64,000 bases of DNA from Escherichia phage mobillu: the sequence record MN850622.1; one strand, given 5' to 3'. Position numbers and translations under genes: made by a program. Below are positions 1 through 26,370 of this stretch, one piece after another. How positions within the stretch are numbered: the stretch's first letter is position 1; each line of letters starts with the position of its first letter. The notes beneath the pieces were generated by a model. That model did not search any database. It was not told the DNA's origin and was given only the letters and a program-made list of their open reading frames with translations.

Positions 1-851
1 AATCAAAATCAAGTCTTGCTCGTCCACAAATTATTGATGCAATTTTAGATGCACTGAAATTCAGCACAGACACTTATTTTGTAAGTCCTGAAACTGTTCG
101 TCGTGATTTCACTAAAGAATTCTATACGAAAGTTATTGATCGTTGTGAAAGCATTCAACCATTGATTGATTCATTTGGTAAAATCACACATGTGAACTAC
201 ACTAAGATTGGACGTCTGAAGCCAATGCTGAAACAAGCTTTAGAACACCTTATTCGTTATCATAACCGTTCTCAGGGACAGTACTCTGTTATTCATGGTG
301 ACCCGAACTTCAGTAATACTATGATTACTGATAACGGCGAAGTCAAGTTTATCGACCCTCGTGGATATTTTGGCGAAACCAAGATTTACGGGCCAAAATT
401 GTATGATGAAGCTAAAGTGCTTTATGCTGTTTCAGGTTATGATGAATTCAATGCTAATCCGACCTGGGGACAGTTTACTATTGATGAAACAACTTGTAAT
501 GTGACTATTAACATCAATCCATTAGTTTACAAATATGGAAAGATGAGTTCGTTTAACGAGTATCATCATTTGGCTGTAGCAATTATCTGGATTGCATTAG
601 GTGGTTATTTCAAGAATAATCCACTTAAAGCGGTAGCCGCATATTATAAAGGTATGGAACTTCTGACTAAGCAATTACGTAACATGGGCCGTGTACTTCA
701 AGACGGCTCTATTAGTTATGACGTAGCAGAACCTGTAACGGCTACTCTGATTACAAAAAATCCTGGTAAATGGGTACTAACTGATAAAGAAACTGGTGTT
801 TCCTATCGTCCAATCGGTGGCGATATCACTCATCAATGGGAACGAATCTAA
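1..851 (+). CDS. protein-kinase-like (APH/choline-kinase fold) phosphotransferase, 5-prime truncated at window edge
   Basis: Reading frame open from nt 3 with no stop and no ATG before the window start; catalytic-loop-like VIHGDPNFSNTMI and FIDPRGYFG motifs; stop TAA 849-851. Confidence 0.55.
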   Translation, partial: SKSSLARPQIIDAILDALKFSTDTYFVSPETVRRDFTKEFYTKVIDRCESIQPLIDSFGKITHVNYTKIGRLKPMLKQALEHLIRYHNRSQGQYSVIHGDPNFSNTMITDNGEVKFIDPRGYFGETKIYGPKLYDEAKVLYAVSGYDEFNANPTWGQFTIDETTCNVTININPLVYKYGKMSSFNEYHHLAVAIIWIALGGYFKNNPLKAVAAYYKGMELLTKQLRNMGRVLQDGSISYDVAEPVTATLITKNPGKWVLTDKETGVSYRPIGGDITHQWERI

Positions 852-1294: not shown

Positions 1295-2455
1295 ATGAAT
1301 ACTTTTAAAATCGGAACGAATTTTGATTTAGCTCTTCTTGATAAAATCGTAGAGCTCAATAAAACTTATCCTAATAGCTTGATAAACGAAGTATACGGCT
1401 CTACAAGAGAAATGGCTTTTGTAGCAGCCAGACCTGATTTTAGGCTTCCTGACGTTGACAAAAAGATGTTAGAAGATTACGTTAAACGTTGTAACGAATT
1501 AGGTATTTGCTTTAACTATACACTCAACACGATAAATCCTGGTTCAAAAAGAGAACTAGTTGAGTGGAAGAAGAAAGCTATTCAGGATTATGTTCAGTAT
1601 CTTTGGTCAATAGGCGTATGGCGTATTACTATCGCTAACCCTGTTGTTATGGAAATTGTTCGTGAAGTCAATAAAGACATTGAGATTGAAGTTTCAACAA
1701 TTCTACATGTCGATGCTGTAACTCAAATCAAATACTTGCATGACCAGTATAATATCAAAAAGGTCTGCTGTGGAATTCATAAGAACCGTTCAGTTTCTTT
1801 CCTGAAGCGTGCAGCAGAGTTTTGCAATAAGAACAATATAATATTTGAAGTTCTTGTAAATGAGTTCTGTTCTAATGCTGGTAAAGGGTATACAACACAT
1901 TGTAGCTATCGTGACTCTTGCTATATTTTCCATAGTACTGATGTTACAGCTGATGATGCTAAATCCTTAAACGGATATCCTATGCAGCACTGTATTAAAG
2001 CTCGTGATACAGACCCATTTAACTGGTTGAGAACTCGTTTTGTTCGTCCTCAAGATTTGAAACTTTATAATGATATTGGTATCACTCAATTCAAAGTTTC
2101 AGGACGTACAGGTAGCACAGACTACATTTTGAAAGTTCTTGAAGCATACGCTTCTGAAAAGTTTGAAGGTAATTTGTTAGAACTGTGGAAGCCTTTAGAG
2201 ACTATTTTCACTCTTGAAAATGAGACCGAGTTTTCACATACGGTAAATATTGAAACCTCTTTGTTAGATGGCTTTTTAGAAAAAAGGTGGTTCAGACATC
2301 CAGATTTCGATTGTGCTAATGAAATCTGCGGGACGACGTGTACATATTGTGAAAGATATTATAAACGTCAGTTATCTAAAAATGGGTTATCAGAAAATTC
2401 TATATCTATTATTGATATAACTAACTCTGATGACGCTTTGAGGTACCCAGAATGA
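1295..2455 (+). CDS. peptidase U32-family protein (RlhA/TrhP/UbiU-like putative Fe-S prephenate-dependent hydroxylase)
   Basis: 386 aa; N-terminal layout and FKVSGRTGSTDY segment resemble U32 KIEGR region; multiple Cys incl. C-terminal CxxxxCxxxCxxC; assignment from memory of family motifs. Confidence 0.5.
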   Translation: MNTFKIGTNFDLALLDKIVELNKTYPNSLINEVYGSTREMAFVAARPDFRLPDVDKKMLEDYVKRCNELGICFNYTLNTINPGSKRELVEWKKKAIQDYVQYLWSIGVWRITIANPVVMEIVREVNKDIEIEVSTILHVDAVTQIKYLHDQYNIKKVCCGIHKNRSVSFLKRAAEFCNKNNIIFEVLVNEFCSNAGKGYTTHCSYRDSCYIFHSTDVTADDAKSLNGYPMQHCIKARDTDPFNWLRTRFVRPQDLKLYNDIGITQFKVSGRTGSTDYILKVLEAYASEKFEGNLLELWKPLETIFTLENETEFSHTVNIETSLLDGFLEKRWFRHPDFDCANEICGTTCTYCERYYKRQLSKNGLSENSISIIDITNSDDALRYPE

Positions 2456-2691
2456 TTTCTAGAAAAACTTTTAACCACCAACTTAATGAAGAGATTTTGA
2501 CTATGAAAATTAACAGCAACGAACAAATTCTTAAAAAGGCCCTTATGGGCCTGTTTGAAACTAAAGCGGCTAAAGTGATTAAAGGACCTGTTCAATTGGA
2601 ATACTACGCTGATGCATTTCTTCATAGTGTTCTTGGAAGTATCGATGCTGAAGCTTTACGTTATATCAACATTGTCAAGAAATTCAAATAA
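2452..2691 (+). CDS. hypothetical protein
   Basis: ATGA start/stop overlap with upstream gene; 79 aa; no recognisable motif. Confidence 0.45.
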   Translation: MISRKTFNHQLNEEILTMKINSNEQILKKALMGLFETKAAKVIKGPVQLEYYADAFLHSVLGSIDAEALRYINIVKKFK

Positions 2692-2714
2692 GCTTTACGA
2701 ATTGAGTATATAAT
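2692..2714 (+). promoter_or_regulatory. putative middle promoter for gene 42 (MotA box GCTTTA + TATAAT)
   Basis: aGCTTTAcgaattgagtaTATAAT, box-to--10 gap 11 nt. Confidence 0.35.
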
Positions 2715-2733
2715 AAATTGTATTGAGGTAAAC

Positions 2734-3450
2734 ATGGGAAAACATAACACAATGAAATATATCAAAGCCGCAGATTTTCAAACCGCATTTAAAGCAGTCA
2801 ATCGTGAAATTTTAGAAAACCCGGAATTCGTAACTGATTCTCGTATTGGACGTTGTAATGAAATTGGGTCTATGACAGTAGTTGTTGACACTCCATCATC
2901 ATTCAAAATGACCGACCCACGTATTAACCGCATCTCTTATGAATACGCCGAAGATTTCTGGAAGTTTATGATTTCTGGTGGTACCAACGCAGAAGAAGCG
3001 TTTAAGGCATATCCTAATGTCGCTAAATTTATTTCTAAACCAAAATCAGATGTTTTGCCGGCGAACTTCAACACTTTCTACGGTCCTCGCATTGCGGCCC
3101 AATTACCAGCTCTTCTAAAAGAACTTAAAGAGAAGCCTAACTCCCGAAGAGTTGTGTTCCAAATTCTAGAAAGTTCTGATCAGGCTTTGCTTGATTCAGA
3201 CGAAACGCTTGAATATCCATGTACTGACTCAGTGACTTATTATATTCGTGATGGTAAGCTTTATACCCACTGTCATATGCGTTCTCAGAACTGTGCTGTT
3301 GTTATGCAGTTGGATTTTTATCTCCAAGGAAAATTACTTCATTATATCGCTAACGAATGTGGTGTAGAAGTTGGTGATTATACTCATACCATGGTAAGTG
3401 CCCATGTGTTTGAACGTGATTTTGATTATGTTAAAGGATTCCTTGACTAA
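2734..3450 (+). CDS. 42: dCMP hydroxymethylase (thymidylate-synthase superfamily), gene 42 homolog
   Basis: GAGGT RBS; SRR and YPCTD catalytic-Cys motif, MRSQN motif, Asp at position +31 from catalytic Cys (equivalent to T4 gp42 Asp179 / TS Asn177); syntenic with T4 gene 42 next to uvsX. Confidence 0.75.
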   Translation: MGKHNTMKYIKAADFQTAFKAVNREILENPEFVTDSRIGRCNEIGSMTVVVDTPSSFKMTDPRINRISYEYAEDFWKFMISGGTNAEEAFKAYPNVAKFISKPKSDVLPANFNTFYGPRIAAQLPALLKELKEKPNSRRVVFQILESSDQALLDSDETLEYPCTDSVTYYIRDGKLYTHCHMRSQNCAVVMQLDFYLQGKLLHYIANECGVEVGDYTHTMVSAHVFERDFDYVKGFLD

Positions 3451-4349
3451 TGGCTATTTTCCGCGTACCAATCTTGAGTATGCGGTCTTATGAAACTGGA
3501 CAGTATGCTATCCTTAAGGATGGCAACTTCCAACTTCATTTGCACCGTGCTAATCCAGGTGATGTGATTACATATCCACGTAATGCATCTGATATTAAAG
3601 AATGCGAACGTCTTTTCCCAGAATTTAAGTTTGTTCCATTATGGTATAAAGATAACGCGTATAACACTCGTAAATATTTCTGGTCTGAAAATGAATTTGT
3701 GGTTGATTCATTAATTGCTTATTATGATTGTGATTTTCTAATCACAGATATCACCGGATATGACGGTGCTTTTGATGTAGAATTCAATTTCAATATCACT
3801 GCAGACCCTAATAAACCACGTTTTTATATTGACGAATTCTTAAAAACCGACATGTTGTCGGTTAATCGTTCACTTCAAACTACTGTGTTGAACGAACGTC
3901 AAAAAGAAGTGCTGGTTAACGCAGGTGCAGATGGTAATAAGATTATCGTAACGCAGAAAGTTATACGTCCTTCCATCATGCAGCGTCTTGTAGGTGATTT
4001 GGCTCCTATTCATCTAGATGGTATTTTTCATCCATTTCGAATTAGCGACCCGTGCTATCGTTTTGAACAAGTGGTTGAATGTGCAATTCAATTAGGCCAA
4101 CCGCTTTATATAACCGATCCAAATAATAGCTTCGACAGAAATAAGTATCCTGAAGAAGCGCTGATTCGAATTTTTAAACCAACTAAAACTGAGTACTATC
4201 AAATTCTTAAAGGACGTCCGAAAATTCAATATTTCGAAAATCCTGAAGAAGTATTCCATCCAGGTCTTGGTGAGTTCATCTACTTTAATGCTTTAATTTC
4301 TTCGCCGTATAATATACCTAAATATGAAGATGTCGTAATCGAGGAATAA
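3450..4349 (+). CDS. hypothetical protein in beta-gt syntenic slot (possible transferase)
   Basis: TAATG coupling to gene 42; 299 aa; no recognisable similarity to T4 beta-glucosyltransferase by eye. Confidence 0.5.
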   Translation: MAIFRVPILSMRSYETGQYAILKDGNFQLHLHRANPGDVITYPRNASDIKECERLFPEFKFVPLWYKDNAYNTRKYFWSENEFVVDSLIAYYDCDFLITDITGYDGAFDVEFNFNITADPNKPRFYIDEFLKTDMLSVNRSLQTTVLNERQKEVLVNAGADGNKIIVTQKVIRPSIMQRLVGDLAPIHLDGIFHPFRISDPCYRFEQVVECAIQLGQPLYITDPNNSFDRNKYPEEALIRIFKPTKTEYYQILKGRPKIQYFENPEEVFHPGLGEFIYFNALISSPYNIPKYEDVVIEE

Positions 4350-4350
4350 A

Positions 4351-4899
4351 ATGGCTAAAATTATTTTAGTAGATGGCCCAGATAATGCTGGTAAAACAAC
4401 TTTCATTAATGACATAATGGAAATTAGTGAAAGATATGTAAAGATTGATTTCCCTAAACGAACAGTTGATGGGCGTTTCGATGTTAAGTCTCGAAATGAA
4501 GTTGGCTGCTTCGAAACGATGTTGAATTATTTAGACCCTACTAAGATTTATCTGTTAGACCGTGGATATATTAGTAACTGGGTTTATGGACGTATTCGAC
4601 AAGATGCGGACTCGGTTCTTGACGTTTATGAACAGGATTATGTTCGTCTTTGCCAAAACCATGATGTGTTCACAATTATTTTAACACGTAACGAAATGAC
4701 TGAAAGTTTTGAAGACGACCTTATTACTTTGTCTTCATTCGGTTTTAATACAGTCATTTCACATTTTGAAGAGTTTGCAATTCATAACAAAATCCAAACG
4801 TATCAATTACTTAATCATGATGGTGCTAACAAAGTTATAGGATTTAATGCAAGCGAACGTAATTATTTGATTACAGAAATTATCAAATGGGCTCGTTAA
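4351..4899 (+). CDS. P-loop nucleotide/nucleoside kinase-like protein (TMPK/dNK-like)
   Basis: Walker A VDGPDNAGKTT near N-terminus; LDRGYISNWVYG resembles DR(Y/H) motif of thymidylate/deoxynucleoside kinases. Confidence 0.6.
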   Translation: MAKIILVDGPDNAGKTTFINDIMEISERYVKIDFPKRTVDGRFDVKSRNEVGCFETMLNYLDPTKIYLLDRGYISNWVYGRIRQDADSVLDVYEQDYVRLCQNHDVFTIILTRNEMTESFEDDLITLSSFGFNTVISHFEEFAIHNKIQTYQLLNHDGANKVIGFNASERNYLITEIIKWAR

Positions 4900-4919
4900 G
4901 AGCCATTTAAAGTTTTAAA

Positions 4920-4944
4920 TGCTGTATAACCCTTAGTATATAAT
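4920..4944 (+). promoter_or_regulatory. putative middle promoter for uvsX (MotA-box-like TGCTGTA + TATAAT)
   Basis: aaaTGCTGTAtaacccttagtaTATAAT. Confidence 0.3.
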
Positions 4945-4997
4945 CATCTTATCTTTTAAACATGAGTAAAATATAATGATGCCTATGGAAAAATACA

Positions 4998-6170
4998 ATG
5001 TCTGATTTAAAATCTCGTTTGATTAAAGCTTCTACTTCTAAAATGACTGCAGACTTGACTAAGTCTAAGCTGTTTAATAATCGCGATGAAGTCCCTACTC
5101 GTATTCCAATGTTGAATATTGCACTAGGTGGTGCACTGAATGCCGGGTTGCAATCAGGCTTGACTATTTTTGCTGCTCCTTCTAAACACTTTAAAACGTT
5201 GTTTGGACTGACCATGGTTGCAGCATATATGAAGAAATATAAAGATGCAATCTGTTTGTTTTATGACTCAGAATTCGGTGCTTCGGAATCTTATTTTCGT
5301 TCAATGGGTGTTGATTTAGACCGTGTAGTTCATACTCCGATTCAATCGGTCGAACAACTTAAGGTTGATATGACTAATCAGCTTGACGCGATTGAACGCG
5401 GTGATAAAGTTATTATCTTTATTGACTCGATTGGTAATACTGCATCTAAGAAAGAAACCGAAGATGCATTGAACGAGAAAGTTGTAGGTGATATGTCTCG
5501 TGCTAAGGCACTTAAATCTCTGTTCCGCATTGTGACCCCGTATCTGACTATTAAAGATATTCCGTGTGTTGCAATTAACCATACAGCAATGGAAATCGGC
5601 GGATTGTATCCTAAAGAGATTATGGGCGGTGGTACAGGTATTCTTTATTCTGCCAACACGGTATTTTTTATCTCTAAACGTCAGGTTAAAGAAGGTACAG
5701 AATTGACCGGTTATGACTTCACGTTGAAAGCAGAAAAATCTCGCACAGTTAAAGAGAAATCTACTTTCCCGATCACGGTTAATTTTGATGGCGGTATTGA
5801 CCCATTCAGTGGCTTGTTAGAAATGGCAACTGAAATTGGTTTTGTAGTTAAGCCTAAAGCTGGTTGGTATGCTCGTGAATTCCTTGACGAAGAAACAGGT
5901 GAAATGATTCGTGAAGAAAAATCATGGCGTGCTAAAGCTACTGATTGTGTAGAATTCTGGGGACCTTTGTTTAAACACAAACCTTTCCGAGATGCAATTG
6001 AAACTAAATATAAACTAGGTGCTATCTCTTCTATTAAAGAAGTTGATGACGCTGTTAACGACCTTATTAATTGCAAAGCAACAACTAAAGTTCCGGTTAA
6101 AACTTCTGATGCTCCATCTGCAGCAGATATAGAAAACGACCTTGACGAAATGGAAGATTTCGATGAATAA
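4998..6170 (+). CDS. uvsX: UvsX RecA-like recombinase
   Basis: 390 aa; strong N-terminal and core similarity to T4 UvsX; synteny uvsX-40-41. Confidence 0.95.
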   Translation: MSDLKSRLIKASTSKMTADLTKSKLFNNRDEVPTRIPMLNIALGGALNAGLQSGLTIFAAPSKHFKTLFGLTMVAAYMKKYKDAICLFYDSEFGASESYFRSMGVDLDRVVHTPIQSVEQLKVDMTNQLDAIERGDKVIIFIDSIGNTASKKETEDALNEKVVGDMSRAKALKSLFRIVTPYLTIKDIPCVAINHTAMEIGGLYPKEIMGGGTGILYSANTVFFISKRQVKEGTELTGYDFTLKAEKSRTVKEKSTFPITVNFDGGIDPFSGLLEMATEIGFVVKPKAGWYAREFLDEETGEMIREEKSWRAKATDCVEFWGPLFKHKPFRDAIETKYKLGAISSIKEVDDAVNDLINCKATTKVPVKTSDAPSAADIENDLDEMEDFDE

Positions 6171-25269: not shown

Positions 25270-26370
25270 ATGAAAGTTATGTTTATCCCATCTCGCGCAG
25301 TCCCATTTAACCCAGAACGTGTACAAGGTGGTCTTGAAGCAGTACATTTAAATGTGTTGAAATATCTTGTGTCCATCGGTGCTGATATTGATTATATCGG
25401 CTTTGATAATGACACGTTTGGTGACTGGAAGGTTAATCATCATCCTGTTGGTCATCTGACTAAATTCAGTCTAGGTATGAGTTATACTATGGCTCGTAAG
25501 ATTGTTGAACTAGCCGGCATTAATGAGTACGATTTCGTTGTTACAATGGAACCGACCAAACTAACCGTTCAGGCAATTAAAGACGCAGGTCTCTCTAAAG
25601 TTCATAAGAATTTTATGGCAACACCATTTGAACCAGTATCTCGTGGCATTGTTCAAATTTGGGACCAGACTATTCAAATTCATAAGAACGGTGGTAAGAG
25701 TTATGCTCCTACTAAAGCCTTCCGTGAATTTGAACGCAAATATTGTTATATGACTTCAGGTCTGACTGACAAAATTGATTATGATTATTGGCGAGCAAAT
25801 CCGTTGTTTGAAGCCGAAGATTATCCGGTTATTTGTTTGAATGATAAACCTGAAGTTCTTCCGGCGACTGATCTGATTATTAGTGCACAACGTTATGACA
25901 CTAAAATGCGTCGTACTGATGTTGCTCTTGAAGCGATTAAAGCACTAGGCGAAAATGGTGCAGGATACTGTCCTAGTAAATGGGCACCACCAGCTAAATA
26001 TCCTGTTATTATTGATGCTCCACACAGTGAAATCATGGAACGTCTTAAAATGGCTAAAGCACTTATTAATACGTGTCCTGACACAGGTACGGTAGAGAAT
26101 AGTTCTATTGAAGCCATCTCTAAAGGTGTCCCTGTAATCCAGTTAGTTTTTAAGGATTATCCTCATGCGACATTCGAATACGACCCGGATACTGTGCGTG
26201 TAGAAATTGATTCCTCTACTCCTAAGAAAGAAGTAGTTGCGCTTTACACAAAAGCTGTATTAGAATTCACTGACACATACGAAGCTCGAGTTAAACGTGC
26301 TGAAGCAGTATGGAAGAAATATAATCGAGATGCAGTTGTTGCGATGTGGGATAAAATCTTCACAGCGTAA
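25270..26370 (+). CDS. GT-B fold glycosyltransferase-like protein (candidate DNA hmC glycosyltransferase)
   Basis: 366 aa; N-terminal MKVMFIPSR...GGLE resembling GT4/T4 alpha-gt N-terminus; inserted between 39 and rIIA. Confidence 0.45.
   Translation: MKVMFIPSRAVPFNPERVQGGLEAVHLNVLKYLVSIGADIDYIGFDNDTFGDWKVNHHPVGHLTKFSLGMSYTMARKIVELAGINEYDFVVTMEPTKLTVQAIKDAGLSKVHKNFMATPFEPVSRGIVQIWDQTIQIHKNGGKSYAPTKAFREFERKYCYMTSGLTDKIDYDYWRANPLFEAEDYPVICLNDKPEVLPATDLIISAQRYDTKMRRTDVALEAIKALGENGAGYCPSKWAPPAKYPVIIDAPHSEIMERLKMAKALINTCPDTGTVENSSIEAISKGVPVIQLVFKDYPHATFEYDPDTVRVEIDSSTPKKEVVALYTKAVLEFTDTYEARVKRAEAVWKKYNRDAVVAMWDKIFTA

Follow-up and report, generated by a model that had tools for sequence, protein, structure and literature searches.

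The DNA analysed here is a window of 64,000 nucleotides from Escherichia phage mobillu (record MN850622.1), and the subject of the analysis is a pair of adjacent genes near its start, which code for a predicted glycosyltransferase (GT) of 299 amino acids (aa) and a P-loop kinase of 182 aa. An initial annotation had placed two open reading frames (ORFs) here, in the slot taken in T4 by beta-glucosyltransferase (beta-gt), and both statements were borne out. The pair lies between a thymidylate synthase (TS)-family gene and uvsX, and the interval from gene 42 to uvsX in T4 is known to hold beta-gt and segA (Thomas 2018, PMC6024577). The genes of this interval and its two borders are as follows.

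2734 to 3450, + strand: TS-family protein, predicted flavin-dependent deoxycytidine monophosphate (dCMP) 5-hydroxylase, that is, 5-hydroxy-dCMP (5hodCMP) synthase (RB69 gp48); Pfam Thymidylat_synt, E 2.3e-15
3450 to 4349, + strand: GT-B glycosyltransferase, 299 aa, ATG start (RB69 gp46:47; DLP3 gp79; Thanatos TH1_063), predicted to be the first, base-proximal arabinosyltransferase
4351 to 4899, + strand: P-loop kinase of the thymidylate kinase (TMPK) fold, 182 aa, ATG start (RB69 gp45; DLP3 gp78; Thanatos TH1_064)
4998 to 6170, + strand: uvsX recombinase, marking where the cluster ends downstream; Pfam T4_UVSX_C, E 1.1e-38

The TS-family gene ends and the GT gene begins within the overlapping codons TAATG; a single base separates the GT stop codon, TAA, from the ATG of the kinase gene. 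A scan of positions 2300-5200 for promoters and terminators gave nothing exceeding the shuffle expectation. The exact protein sequences are already public, that of the kinase on 15 contigs and that of the 299-aa protein on 86. Since identical proteins are found in the public databases and both have hundreds of homologues, the two ORFs are genuine genes and not chance ORFs. Database records label these proteins as ‘hypothetical protein’, ‘thymidylate kinase’ or ‘RNA polymerase binding protein’; the last name, which is given to the 299-aa protein in UniRef and in some GenBank records, finds no support in the fold and family data.

The window is affiliated with the RB69-like Mosigvirus phages. 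Its DNA is 98.4% identical to that of RB69 over 6.2 kb, and around 150 Mosigvirus genomes, RB69 and HY126 among them, show 98.2-98.7% identity to the first 6.2 kb. The locus matches RB69 ORF045c-053c, and also HY126, gene for gene. Judged by sequence, the two genes are the final pair in the published cluster for cytosine 5-hydroxylation/arabinosylation in RB69-like T-even phages, a system that is already known. The 299-aa protein, which the initial annotation had called unknown, is the orthologue of RB69 gp46:47, listed as predicted arabinosyltransferase 1, and gp45 is listed as ‘nucleotide kinase’ only (PMC13326640). In the RB69 record AY303349, the transferase is split into ORF047c and ORF046c (L001 6448-7348). 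The cause of the split is a single extra base in RB69, which reads GTAGTGTGATT where the window reads GTAGGTGATT; both the window and HY126 have an intact transferase gene of 299 codons.

The DNA of RB69 was initially reported to contain arabinosyl-5-hydroxymethylcytosine (Thomas 2018, PMC6024577), an assignment that has since been revised. RB69, DLP3, NP and others are now reported to carry mono-, di- or tri-arabinosylated 5-hydroxycytosine (5hoC), in which an ether bond joins the sugar directly to C5 (PMC13326640; PMC13390438), RB69 itself having the mono- and di-arabinosyl forms (PMC13326640). The modification is known in the virion DNA of RB69, DLP3 and NP, and for the phage of the window it is predicted from the genes. 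RB69 gp48, the ‘gene 42’ homologue, was reported to be a flavin-dependent 5hodCMP synthase, the product of which is not 5-hydroxymethyl-dCMP (PMC13326640). The TS-family protein of the window matches the HY126 enzyme in the PDB (9iqc/9ir2/9iqu) at E 7.9e-161 over 238/238 residues; it is identical to RB69 gp48 at 236/238 positions and to the genomic copy of HY126 at 233/238. The name ‘gene 42’, given to this upstream gene in the initial annotation, is right for the family, the TS superfamily, and wrong for the activity. The gene is predicted to be a dCMP 5-hydroxylase and no hydroxymethylase, being a gene 42 homologue by family only.

For the 299-aa protein, sequence searches of Pfam, NCBIfam and the PDB gave no significant match, and neither Pfam Glycos_transf_1 nor Glyco_trans_4 was matched. 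At least 138 homologue clusters of this protein were found. The AlphaFold model, for which 37 diverse homologues were used (pLDDT, the predicted local distance difference test, 94.1), has the GT-B fold with two Rossmann-like domains. Its structural matches, with their scores and ranks, include the following.

Sucrose-phosphate synthase 6kih: 17.6, rank 1
BshA 6n1x: 16.9, rank 2
PimA 2gej: 16.0, rank 5
HY126 366-aa GT 9iqz: 14.5, rank 12
T4 alpha-gt 1y6f: 13.2, rank 31
T4 beta-gt: below 11.4, outside the top 60

The named entries in the 50 best viral predicted structures included no T4 glucosyltransferase. Since T4 beta-gt falls below 11.4 and is missing from this viral list along with its fellow T4 enzyme, the model indicates that the 299-aa protein is a functional successor in the beta-gt slot and no diverged beta-gt. 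The latter identity was tried and rejected, as no recognisable homology to beta-gt was found and beta-gt lay outside the top 60 structural matches. In the C-terminal domain, the family keeps R197, K246 and H270-P-G272 invariant and E275 conserved; R197, K246 and E275 may be the GT4 nucleotide-sugar residues, an Arg/Lys pair for the diphosphate and a Glu for the ribose. The family is acidic, with a median pI of 5.1 and a net charge of -10.

In the kinase, both motifs pointed out in the initial annotation are present, GPDNAGKTT at residues 9-17 and DR-Y-S in LLDRGYISN at 68-76 (D70, R71, Y73 and S75). Across 20 family members, G9, D11, N12, G14, K15, T16, D70, R71 and S75 are invariant, and the motifs G9-P-D11-N-A-G14-K15-T16, F34-P35-K36-R37 and D70-R71-G-Y73 show little or no variation. 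The model (pLDDT 88.5) has the TMPK fold, and its best fold matches are TMPKs. The family profile aligns with vaccinia and yeast TMPK at the P-loop and at FP(K/Q/E)R, and weakly at DR..S..Y; likewise, the FPK(R) and DR motifs of the kinase align with the FP(E/Q)R and DRY of these two enzymes. At the position of the type I TMPKs' P-loop Asp, which touches the 3'-OH of the dTMP mononucleotide, the family has the invariant D11. Because the kinase keeps this Asp, its sequence argues for a free nucleotide rather than DNA as the substrate. The phosphorylation of a modified nucleotide, as first proposed in the initial annotation, is still the most likely function.

The kinase has no match to Pfam PF02223 at E <= 0.1; it scores 16 bits with TIGR00041, the cut-off of which is 83.25, and sequence searches of the PDB, Pfam and NCBIfam returned sub-threshold P-loop/TMPK matches only. 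Neither sequence nor fold places the kinase with the T4 gene 1 deoxynucleoside monophosphate (dNMP) kinase (Pfam PF21448), from which it had rightly been set apart. At E <= 0.1, it also does not match Pfam PF18748 (HMUDK_HMUD1), the family of the kinases (5-HMUDKs) that act on 5-hydroxymethyldeoxyuridine (5-hmdU) in DNA, while the positive control M6 gp54 does (E 7.7e-18); 5-HMUDK membership was rejected on this ground. An hhalign comparison of the kinase with M6 gp54 gave a weak match in the P-loop region only (probability 81%, 82 columns). The idea that the kinase activates a hydroxymethyl group in DNA, as 5-hmdU DNA kinases do, is not supported, the base being 5hoC with an ether-linked sugar and PF18748 being unmatched. 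The kinase has Asn12 in the P-loop and a LID segment (112-128) with one invariant Arg (R113) and the invariant pair D122/D123; the LIDs of canonical TMPKs are basic.

The kinase family is small, with 27 clusters at 90% identity, and an exhaustive scan of 1.84 billion representatives found 45 at E <= 1e-10. A relative in an unrelated 40-kb contig (L030 7998-8528) passes the PF02223 cut-off with 37.3 bits and has a TS-like gene around 4 kb away. A more distant relative adjoins a TS-like gene in L020; no GT-family match was found in this locus or in L021, another locus of the more distant relatives, and ORFs nearby, their translations read by eye, presumably are dCMP-deaminase and PolA genes. A sister group (P0179, P0180, P0185 and relatives) consists of proteins of about 314-357 aa with a C-terminal extension, in which a weak match to an HhH-GPD (DNA-glycosylase-type) domain was obtained for P0179, P0180 and the L028 protein. 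In L028, the gene right after the kinase-HhH-GPD fusion (70-1092) codes for a member of the 299-aa GT family (1089-2138), and the next gene is one that we take, by eye, to resemble PolA. This context comes from a single metagenome scan and one metagenomic contig, and two scans of viral contigs found no such context for the fusion. For that lineage, it is a hint of a role at the level of DNA.

The distribution of the two genes across phages is the comparative result that is new here. Among 50,697 phage records, the kinase occurs in 343 and the GT in 348, and the counts per genus are equal or nearly so for most genera (kinase/GT: Escherichia 176/176, Acinetobacter 57/57, Shigella 15/15, Proteus 7/7, Klebsiella 25/26), Serratia being the clear exception (9/14). 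Twelve GT-anchored loci were scanned, namely those of Thanatos, Serratia phage WSPA and a Rhizobium phage together with nine metagenomic contigs. A kinase-family gene directly adjoins the GT gene in 11 of the 12; it stands immediately downstream in ten of these, usually overlapping the end of the GT gene, and upstream in one. In the twelfth, that of Rhizobium phage P9VFCI, the neighbour is a TMPK-like P-loop protein of marginal similarity. This protein, P9VFCI_114, which lies beside the TS and GT genes, was not counted as a family member, given its hhalign probability of 62% and the missing Asp of the DR motif.

Four distant myovirus contigs carry, among tail genes, a self-contained island of a Flavodoxin_2 (FMN-reductase-like) gene, a TS-like gene, the GT and the kinase, with no sugar-activation genes in any of the four. 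As these islands keep the kinase without such genes, it is a core gene of the 5hoC glycosylation module and no part of arabinose activation. A role in arabinose activation was rejected for this reason, and because the enzymes AfhE and AfhF are reported to supply UDP-arabinose. The gene order is flexible. In L032 and L028, the kinase comes before the GT; it is apart from the GT in L014 and in the JS98-like phages (L018), where it lies between the phosphatase and U32 genes; in one T4-like contig, it stands alone beside uvsX. Flavodoxin_2/FMN-reductase-like genes were seen at L024 605-1123, L026 6715-7275, L033 5215-5739, L034 5739-6293 and L035 5793-6293. They lie upstream of the TS-like hydroxylase gene, directly in L026, L034 and L035, one ORF away in L033 and around 5 kb away in L024, and probably encode the flavin reductase partner of this flavin-dependent enzyme. 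The cluster in the window has no such gene. Hydroxylase, transferase and kinase thus form a cross-lineage module.

Further genes annotated in the window are listed below.

1 to 851, + strand: bifunctional sugar-1-phosphate nucleotidyltransferase/kinase, C-terminal 282 codons (RB69 gp52:53, HY126 AfhE-like); PHROG 4098
836 to 1237, + strand: HAD-type phosphatase (RB69 gp51, AfhF-like); PHROG 1238, E 5e-43; NCBIfam capsule biosynthesis phosphatase, E 4e-13
1295 to 2455, + strand: U32 ‘peptidase’-family protein (RB69 gp50); Pfam Peptidase_U32, E 7.3e-11; PHROG 5757, E 6e-267
2452 to 2691, + strand: small conserved ORF, annotated in RB69 as ORF049c; PHROG 8601, E 8e-51
25270 to 26370, + strand: second glycosyltransferase, 366 aa (RB69 gp3/ORF003c; HY126 GT); PDB 9iqz/9ir0, E 4.1e-247

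The arabinosyl-5hoC cluster is therefore represented in the window by the TS-family hydroxylase, the C-terminus of the nucleotidyltransferase/kinase, the HAD phosphatase and the second GT, and an isomerase gene lies directly upstream in all close relatives. The gene at 1-851 matches positions 335-559 of the PHROG 4098 profile (E 3e-121), with weak Pfam matches to APH and fructosamine-kinase. It begins before the window, its frame being open from base 3 to base 851; the start at TTG given by the ORF lister (162..851) is an artefact of the window edge. In phage NRG-P0074, a close relative, a homing endonuclease gene (L002 3836-4597) stands between the nucleotidyltransferase/kinase and phosphatase genes, an insertion that the window does not have. 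The 366-aa GT gene lies away from the two-gene locus and belongs to the same pathway. On one side of it is a gene that, from the sequence read by eye, is presumably a gp39-like topoisomerase gene, and on the other is the next large ORF downstream. In RB69, UDP-arabinofuranose (UDP-Araf) is made by gp52:53, gp51 and gp55, and gp3 is the predicted second transferase (PMC13326640). As far as the summary of He et al. in PMC13326640 goes, HY126 AfhE has a nucleotidyltransferase domain with UDP-arabinose pyrophosphorylase activity, and AfhE and AfhF together turn arabinose 5-phosphate into UDP-arabinose. The AfhF-like phosphatase, RB69 gp51, is reported to convert Araf-1,5-P2 into Araf-1-P (PMC13326640).

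These observations can be assembled into a pathway. The TS-family enzyme would hydroxylate dCMP at C5 to give 5hodCMP, as is known from the literature for the RB69 and HY126 enzymes. The 182-aa protein would then act as a diverged nucleoside monophosphate (NMP) kinase of the TMPK fold, dedicated to the product of the hydroxylase, and would most likely convert 5hodCMP to the diphosphate for the deoxynucleoside triphosphate (dNTP) pool; its fold, its motifs and its constant linkage to the hydroxylase suggest this substrate. The 299-aa GT-B enzyme, GT4-like and of the retaining type, may take arabinofuranose from UDP-Araf and place it, as the first and base-proximal sugar, on the 5-hydroxyl of 5hoC, in most likelihood on DNA after replication if the analogy with T4 is followed. 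That gp46:47 makes this first transfer is a prediction in the literature (PMC13326640). The 366-aa GT (25270-26370) would add the second arabinose. In this lineage, a portable module of three genes (hydroxylase, transferase and kinase) would have replaced gene 42 and beta-gt. The mechanism as a whole, from the hydroxylase through the dedicated 5hodCMP kinase to the first arabinose on DNA by the 299-aa GT and the second by the 366-aa GT, is considered somewhat probable.

Several points weigh against it. The gene 1 homologue of RB69, gp159, converts 5hodCMP to 5-hydroxy-dCDP (5hodCDP) in vitro (PMC13326640), so a second 5hodCMP kinase looks redundant, which is the main weakness. The DLP3 glycosyltransferases, each taken alone, gave no arabinosylation of 5hoC-containing DNA (PMC13326640), and Thanatos TH1_063 was reported as a UDP-xylose pyrophosphorylase and not as a transferase (PMC12838424). 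A GT family of such acidity is not what we would expect of a DNA-binding enzyme, and the LID of the kinase, with one invariant Arg and two invariant Asp, is unlike the basic LID of TMPKs. No published assay of gp45 or gp46:47, nor any further account of what they do, was found in the accessible literature, which included neither He et al. 2026 nor Mahler et al. 2025.

The same facts can be read in another order. It can be proposed that the 299-aa GT arabinosylates free 5hodCMP, that the kinase is dedicated to the resulting arabinosyl-5hodCMP, a bulky nucleotide that gp1-type kinases would refuse, and that the polymerase uses the glycosylated dNTP, the later arabinoses being added on DNA. In most lineages, the genes stand in the order hydroxylase-GT-kinase and their stop and start codons overlap, and no part of the module is more constant than the GT-kinase pair (11/12 GT-anchored loci). 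The proteins closest to the GT in structure (sucrose-phosphate synthase, BshA and PimA) work on acceptors that are small and anionic or phosphorylated; the low pI of the GT family fits such a role as well. The FPKR-DR stretch of the kinase is shortened, and its invariant LID Asp-Asp pair could bind sugar hydroxyls. T4-like phages keep this kinase even though their gp1 homologue phosphorylates 5hodCMP. In vitro, the first-step GTs do not act on 5hoC-DNA; the authors of that work were unable to distinguish whether the first arabinose is placed on the mononucleotide or on DNA, leaving this option open (PMC13326640).

Against these points, the expression of gp48 and gp159 leads to the incorporation of 5-hydroxydeoxycytidine (5hodC) into E. 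coli DNA, so an unglycosylated route exists, and the third arabinose was demonstrably added at the DNA level (PMC13326640). The gene order varies, as described above (kinase first in L032 and L028, separated in L018 and L014), and the fusion of some kinase relatives to an HhH-GPD domain points to DNA. We know of no precedent for a glycosylated dNTP pool. On balance, this order of events is unlikely, and its core, in which the first arabinose goes onto the free nucleotide, the kinase serves arabinosyl-5hodCMP and the dNTP pool is pre-glycosylated, is held to be rather improbable. If true, a pre-glycosylated dNTP pool for the polymerase would be, to our knowledge, the first of its kind. Such a scheme would also explain why the transferase-kinase pair travels together in unrelated phage lineages, why the kinase is retained beside a gp1-type kinase and why the first-step GT fails on 5hoC-DNA.

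A different role for the 299-aa protein, the activation of sugar as a UDP-pentose pyrophosphorylase instead of transfer to DNA or a nucleotide, is suggested by Thanatos TH1_063 (L022 6995-7897), which is 47.5% identical to it over 98% of its length and, given UTP and xylose-1-phosphate in vitro, formed UDP-xylose (PMC12838424). This is very unlikely. The fold is GT-B and no nucleotidyltransferase fold, and the protein is present in the four-gene islands, which have no sugar-activation genes. The cluster already has a nucleotidyltransferase domain, for which UDP-arabinose pyrophosphorylase activity is reported in HY126 AfhE, within the limits of the summary already named (PMC13326640). Because the fold is GT-B and the cluster has a nucleotidyltransferase of its own, the reported reaction is here regarded as a side or reverse activity or as that of a contaminant; it could, for example, be reverse or exchange glycosyl transfer to phosphate.

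It may also be asked whether the P-loop protein works on DNA, phosphorylating the modified base for substitution or serving as an ATP-dependent partner of the GT. The weak hhalign match to M6 gp54 would fit, as would the HhH-GPD fusions of distant relatives, one of them adjoining a GT-family gene, since 5-HMUDKs too co-occur with HhH-type proteins; the inactivity of the GTs alone on 5hoC-DNA could be read in the same way (PMC13326640). The proposal is nevertheless highly improbable. PF18748 remains unmatched where M6 gp54 scores E 7.7e-18, the best fold matches are TMPKs, and the TMPK motifs for a free nucleotide are kept, including the P-loop Asp for the 3'-OH, which is esterified in DNA. The ring hydroxyl would be the nucleophile towards the UDP-sugar, and a phosphate on it would block glycosylation; unlike 5-hmU, the base offers no benzylic carbon, and the final modification is phosphate-free. 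Scarcely credible is the reading of the 299-aa protein as a diverged T4 beta-gt and the kinase as a general dNMP kinase with canonical substrates only: the slot is shared with beta-gt, both proteins are GT-B (Thomas 2018, PMC6024577) and records carry the label ‘thymidylate kinase’, but RB69-like phage DNA has arabinose and not glucose, the kinase distribution tracks the 5hoC module (343/50,697 records, with genus counts largely equal to those of the GT), and 16 bits against 83 with TIGR00041 is far under the dTMP kinase cut-off.

The U32 gene of the cluster deserves separate mention. The U32 family includes O2-independent hydroxylases, among them RlhA, which makes 5-hydroxycytosine in 23S rRNA, TrhP and UbiU/V, whereas the TS-like hydroxylase draws its oxygen from O2. 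The gene was found in the loci of Enterobacterales and Shewanella phages. It was absent from all three Acinetobacter-phage-like loci (L015-L017) and from every other scanned locus outside the Enterobacterales and Shewanella groups, including that of Serratia phage WSPA; Acinetobacter is a strict aerobe. The protein (1295-2455) has no sequence match in the PDB. It could serve as a back-up hydroxylase for cytosine C5 under anaerobic conditions; RB69 gp50 is listed only as ‘sugar or heterocycle reductase’ (PMC13326640).

The genes of the cluster are largely assigned in the literature already, and the locus adds no new system. With arabinosyl-5hoC in the DNA, many restriction enzymes are reportedly blocked and the sensitivity to other phage defence systems is changed. 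The hydroxylase-transferase-kinase trio offers a three-gene signature by which glycosyl-5hoC phages can be recognised in metagenomes.

When compared with the known systems, the locus stands closest to the RB69/HY126/DLP3/Thanatos cluster. The proteins are orthologues, 297/299 and 179/182 residues being identical to those of HY126 (XAN60474/XAN60473) and 180/182 of the kinase to RB69 gp45. The order hydroxylase, GT, kinase, uvsX is common to the window, RB69 and HY126, and the insertion of 1 nt in the RB69 record is the sole difference noted. T4 beta-gt and alpha-gt resemble the 299-aa protein in being GT-B enzymes that add a sugar from a UDP-sugar to the C5 oxygen of a modified cytosine. The type I TMPKs (vaccinia A48R 2v54, yeast 1tmk and human) are only 8-19% identical to the kinase, which falls under the Pfam and TIGRFAM cut-offs. 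It differs from them in an Asn in place of the P-loop Arg/Lys, a shorter NMP-binding segment and an acidic LID (DD), and it is linked in the genome to a dCMP hydroxylase and not to dTMP synthesis. The T4 gene 1 dNMP kinase is likewise a phage NMP kinase, and its RB69 form, gp159, phosphorylates 5hodCMP (PMC13326640). Lastly, the 5-hmdU DNA kinases (PF18748; M6 gp54, ViI gp67) are similar in being small phage P-loop kinases of base-hypermodification clusters, but the kinase of the window has TMPK-type nucleotide motifs, and its base does not have the hydroxymethyl group that 5-HMUDK chemistry needs.

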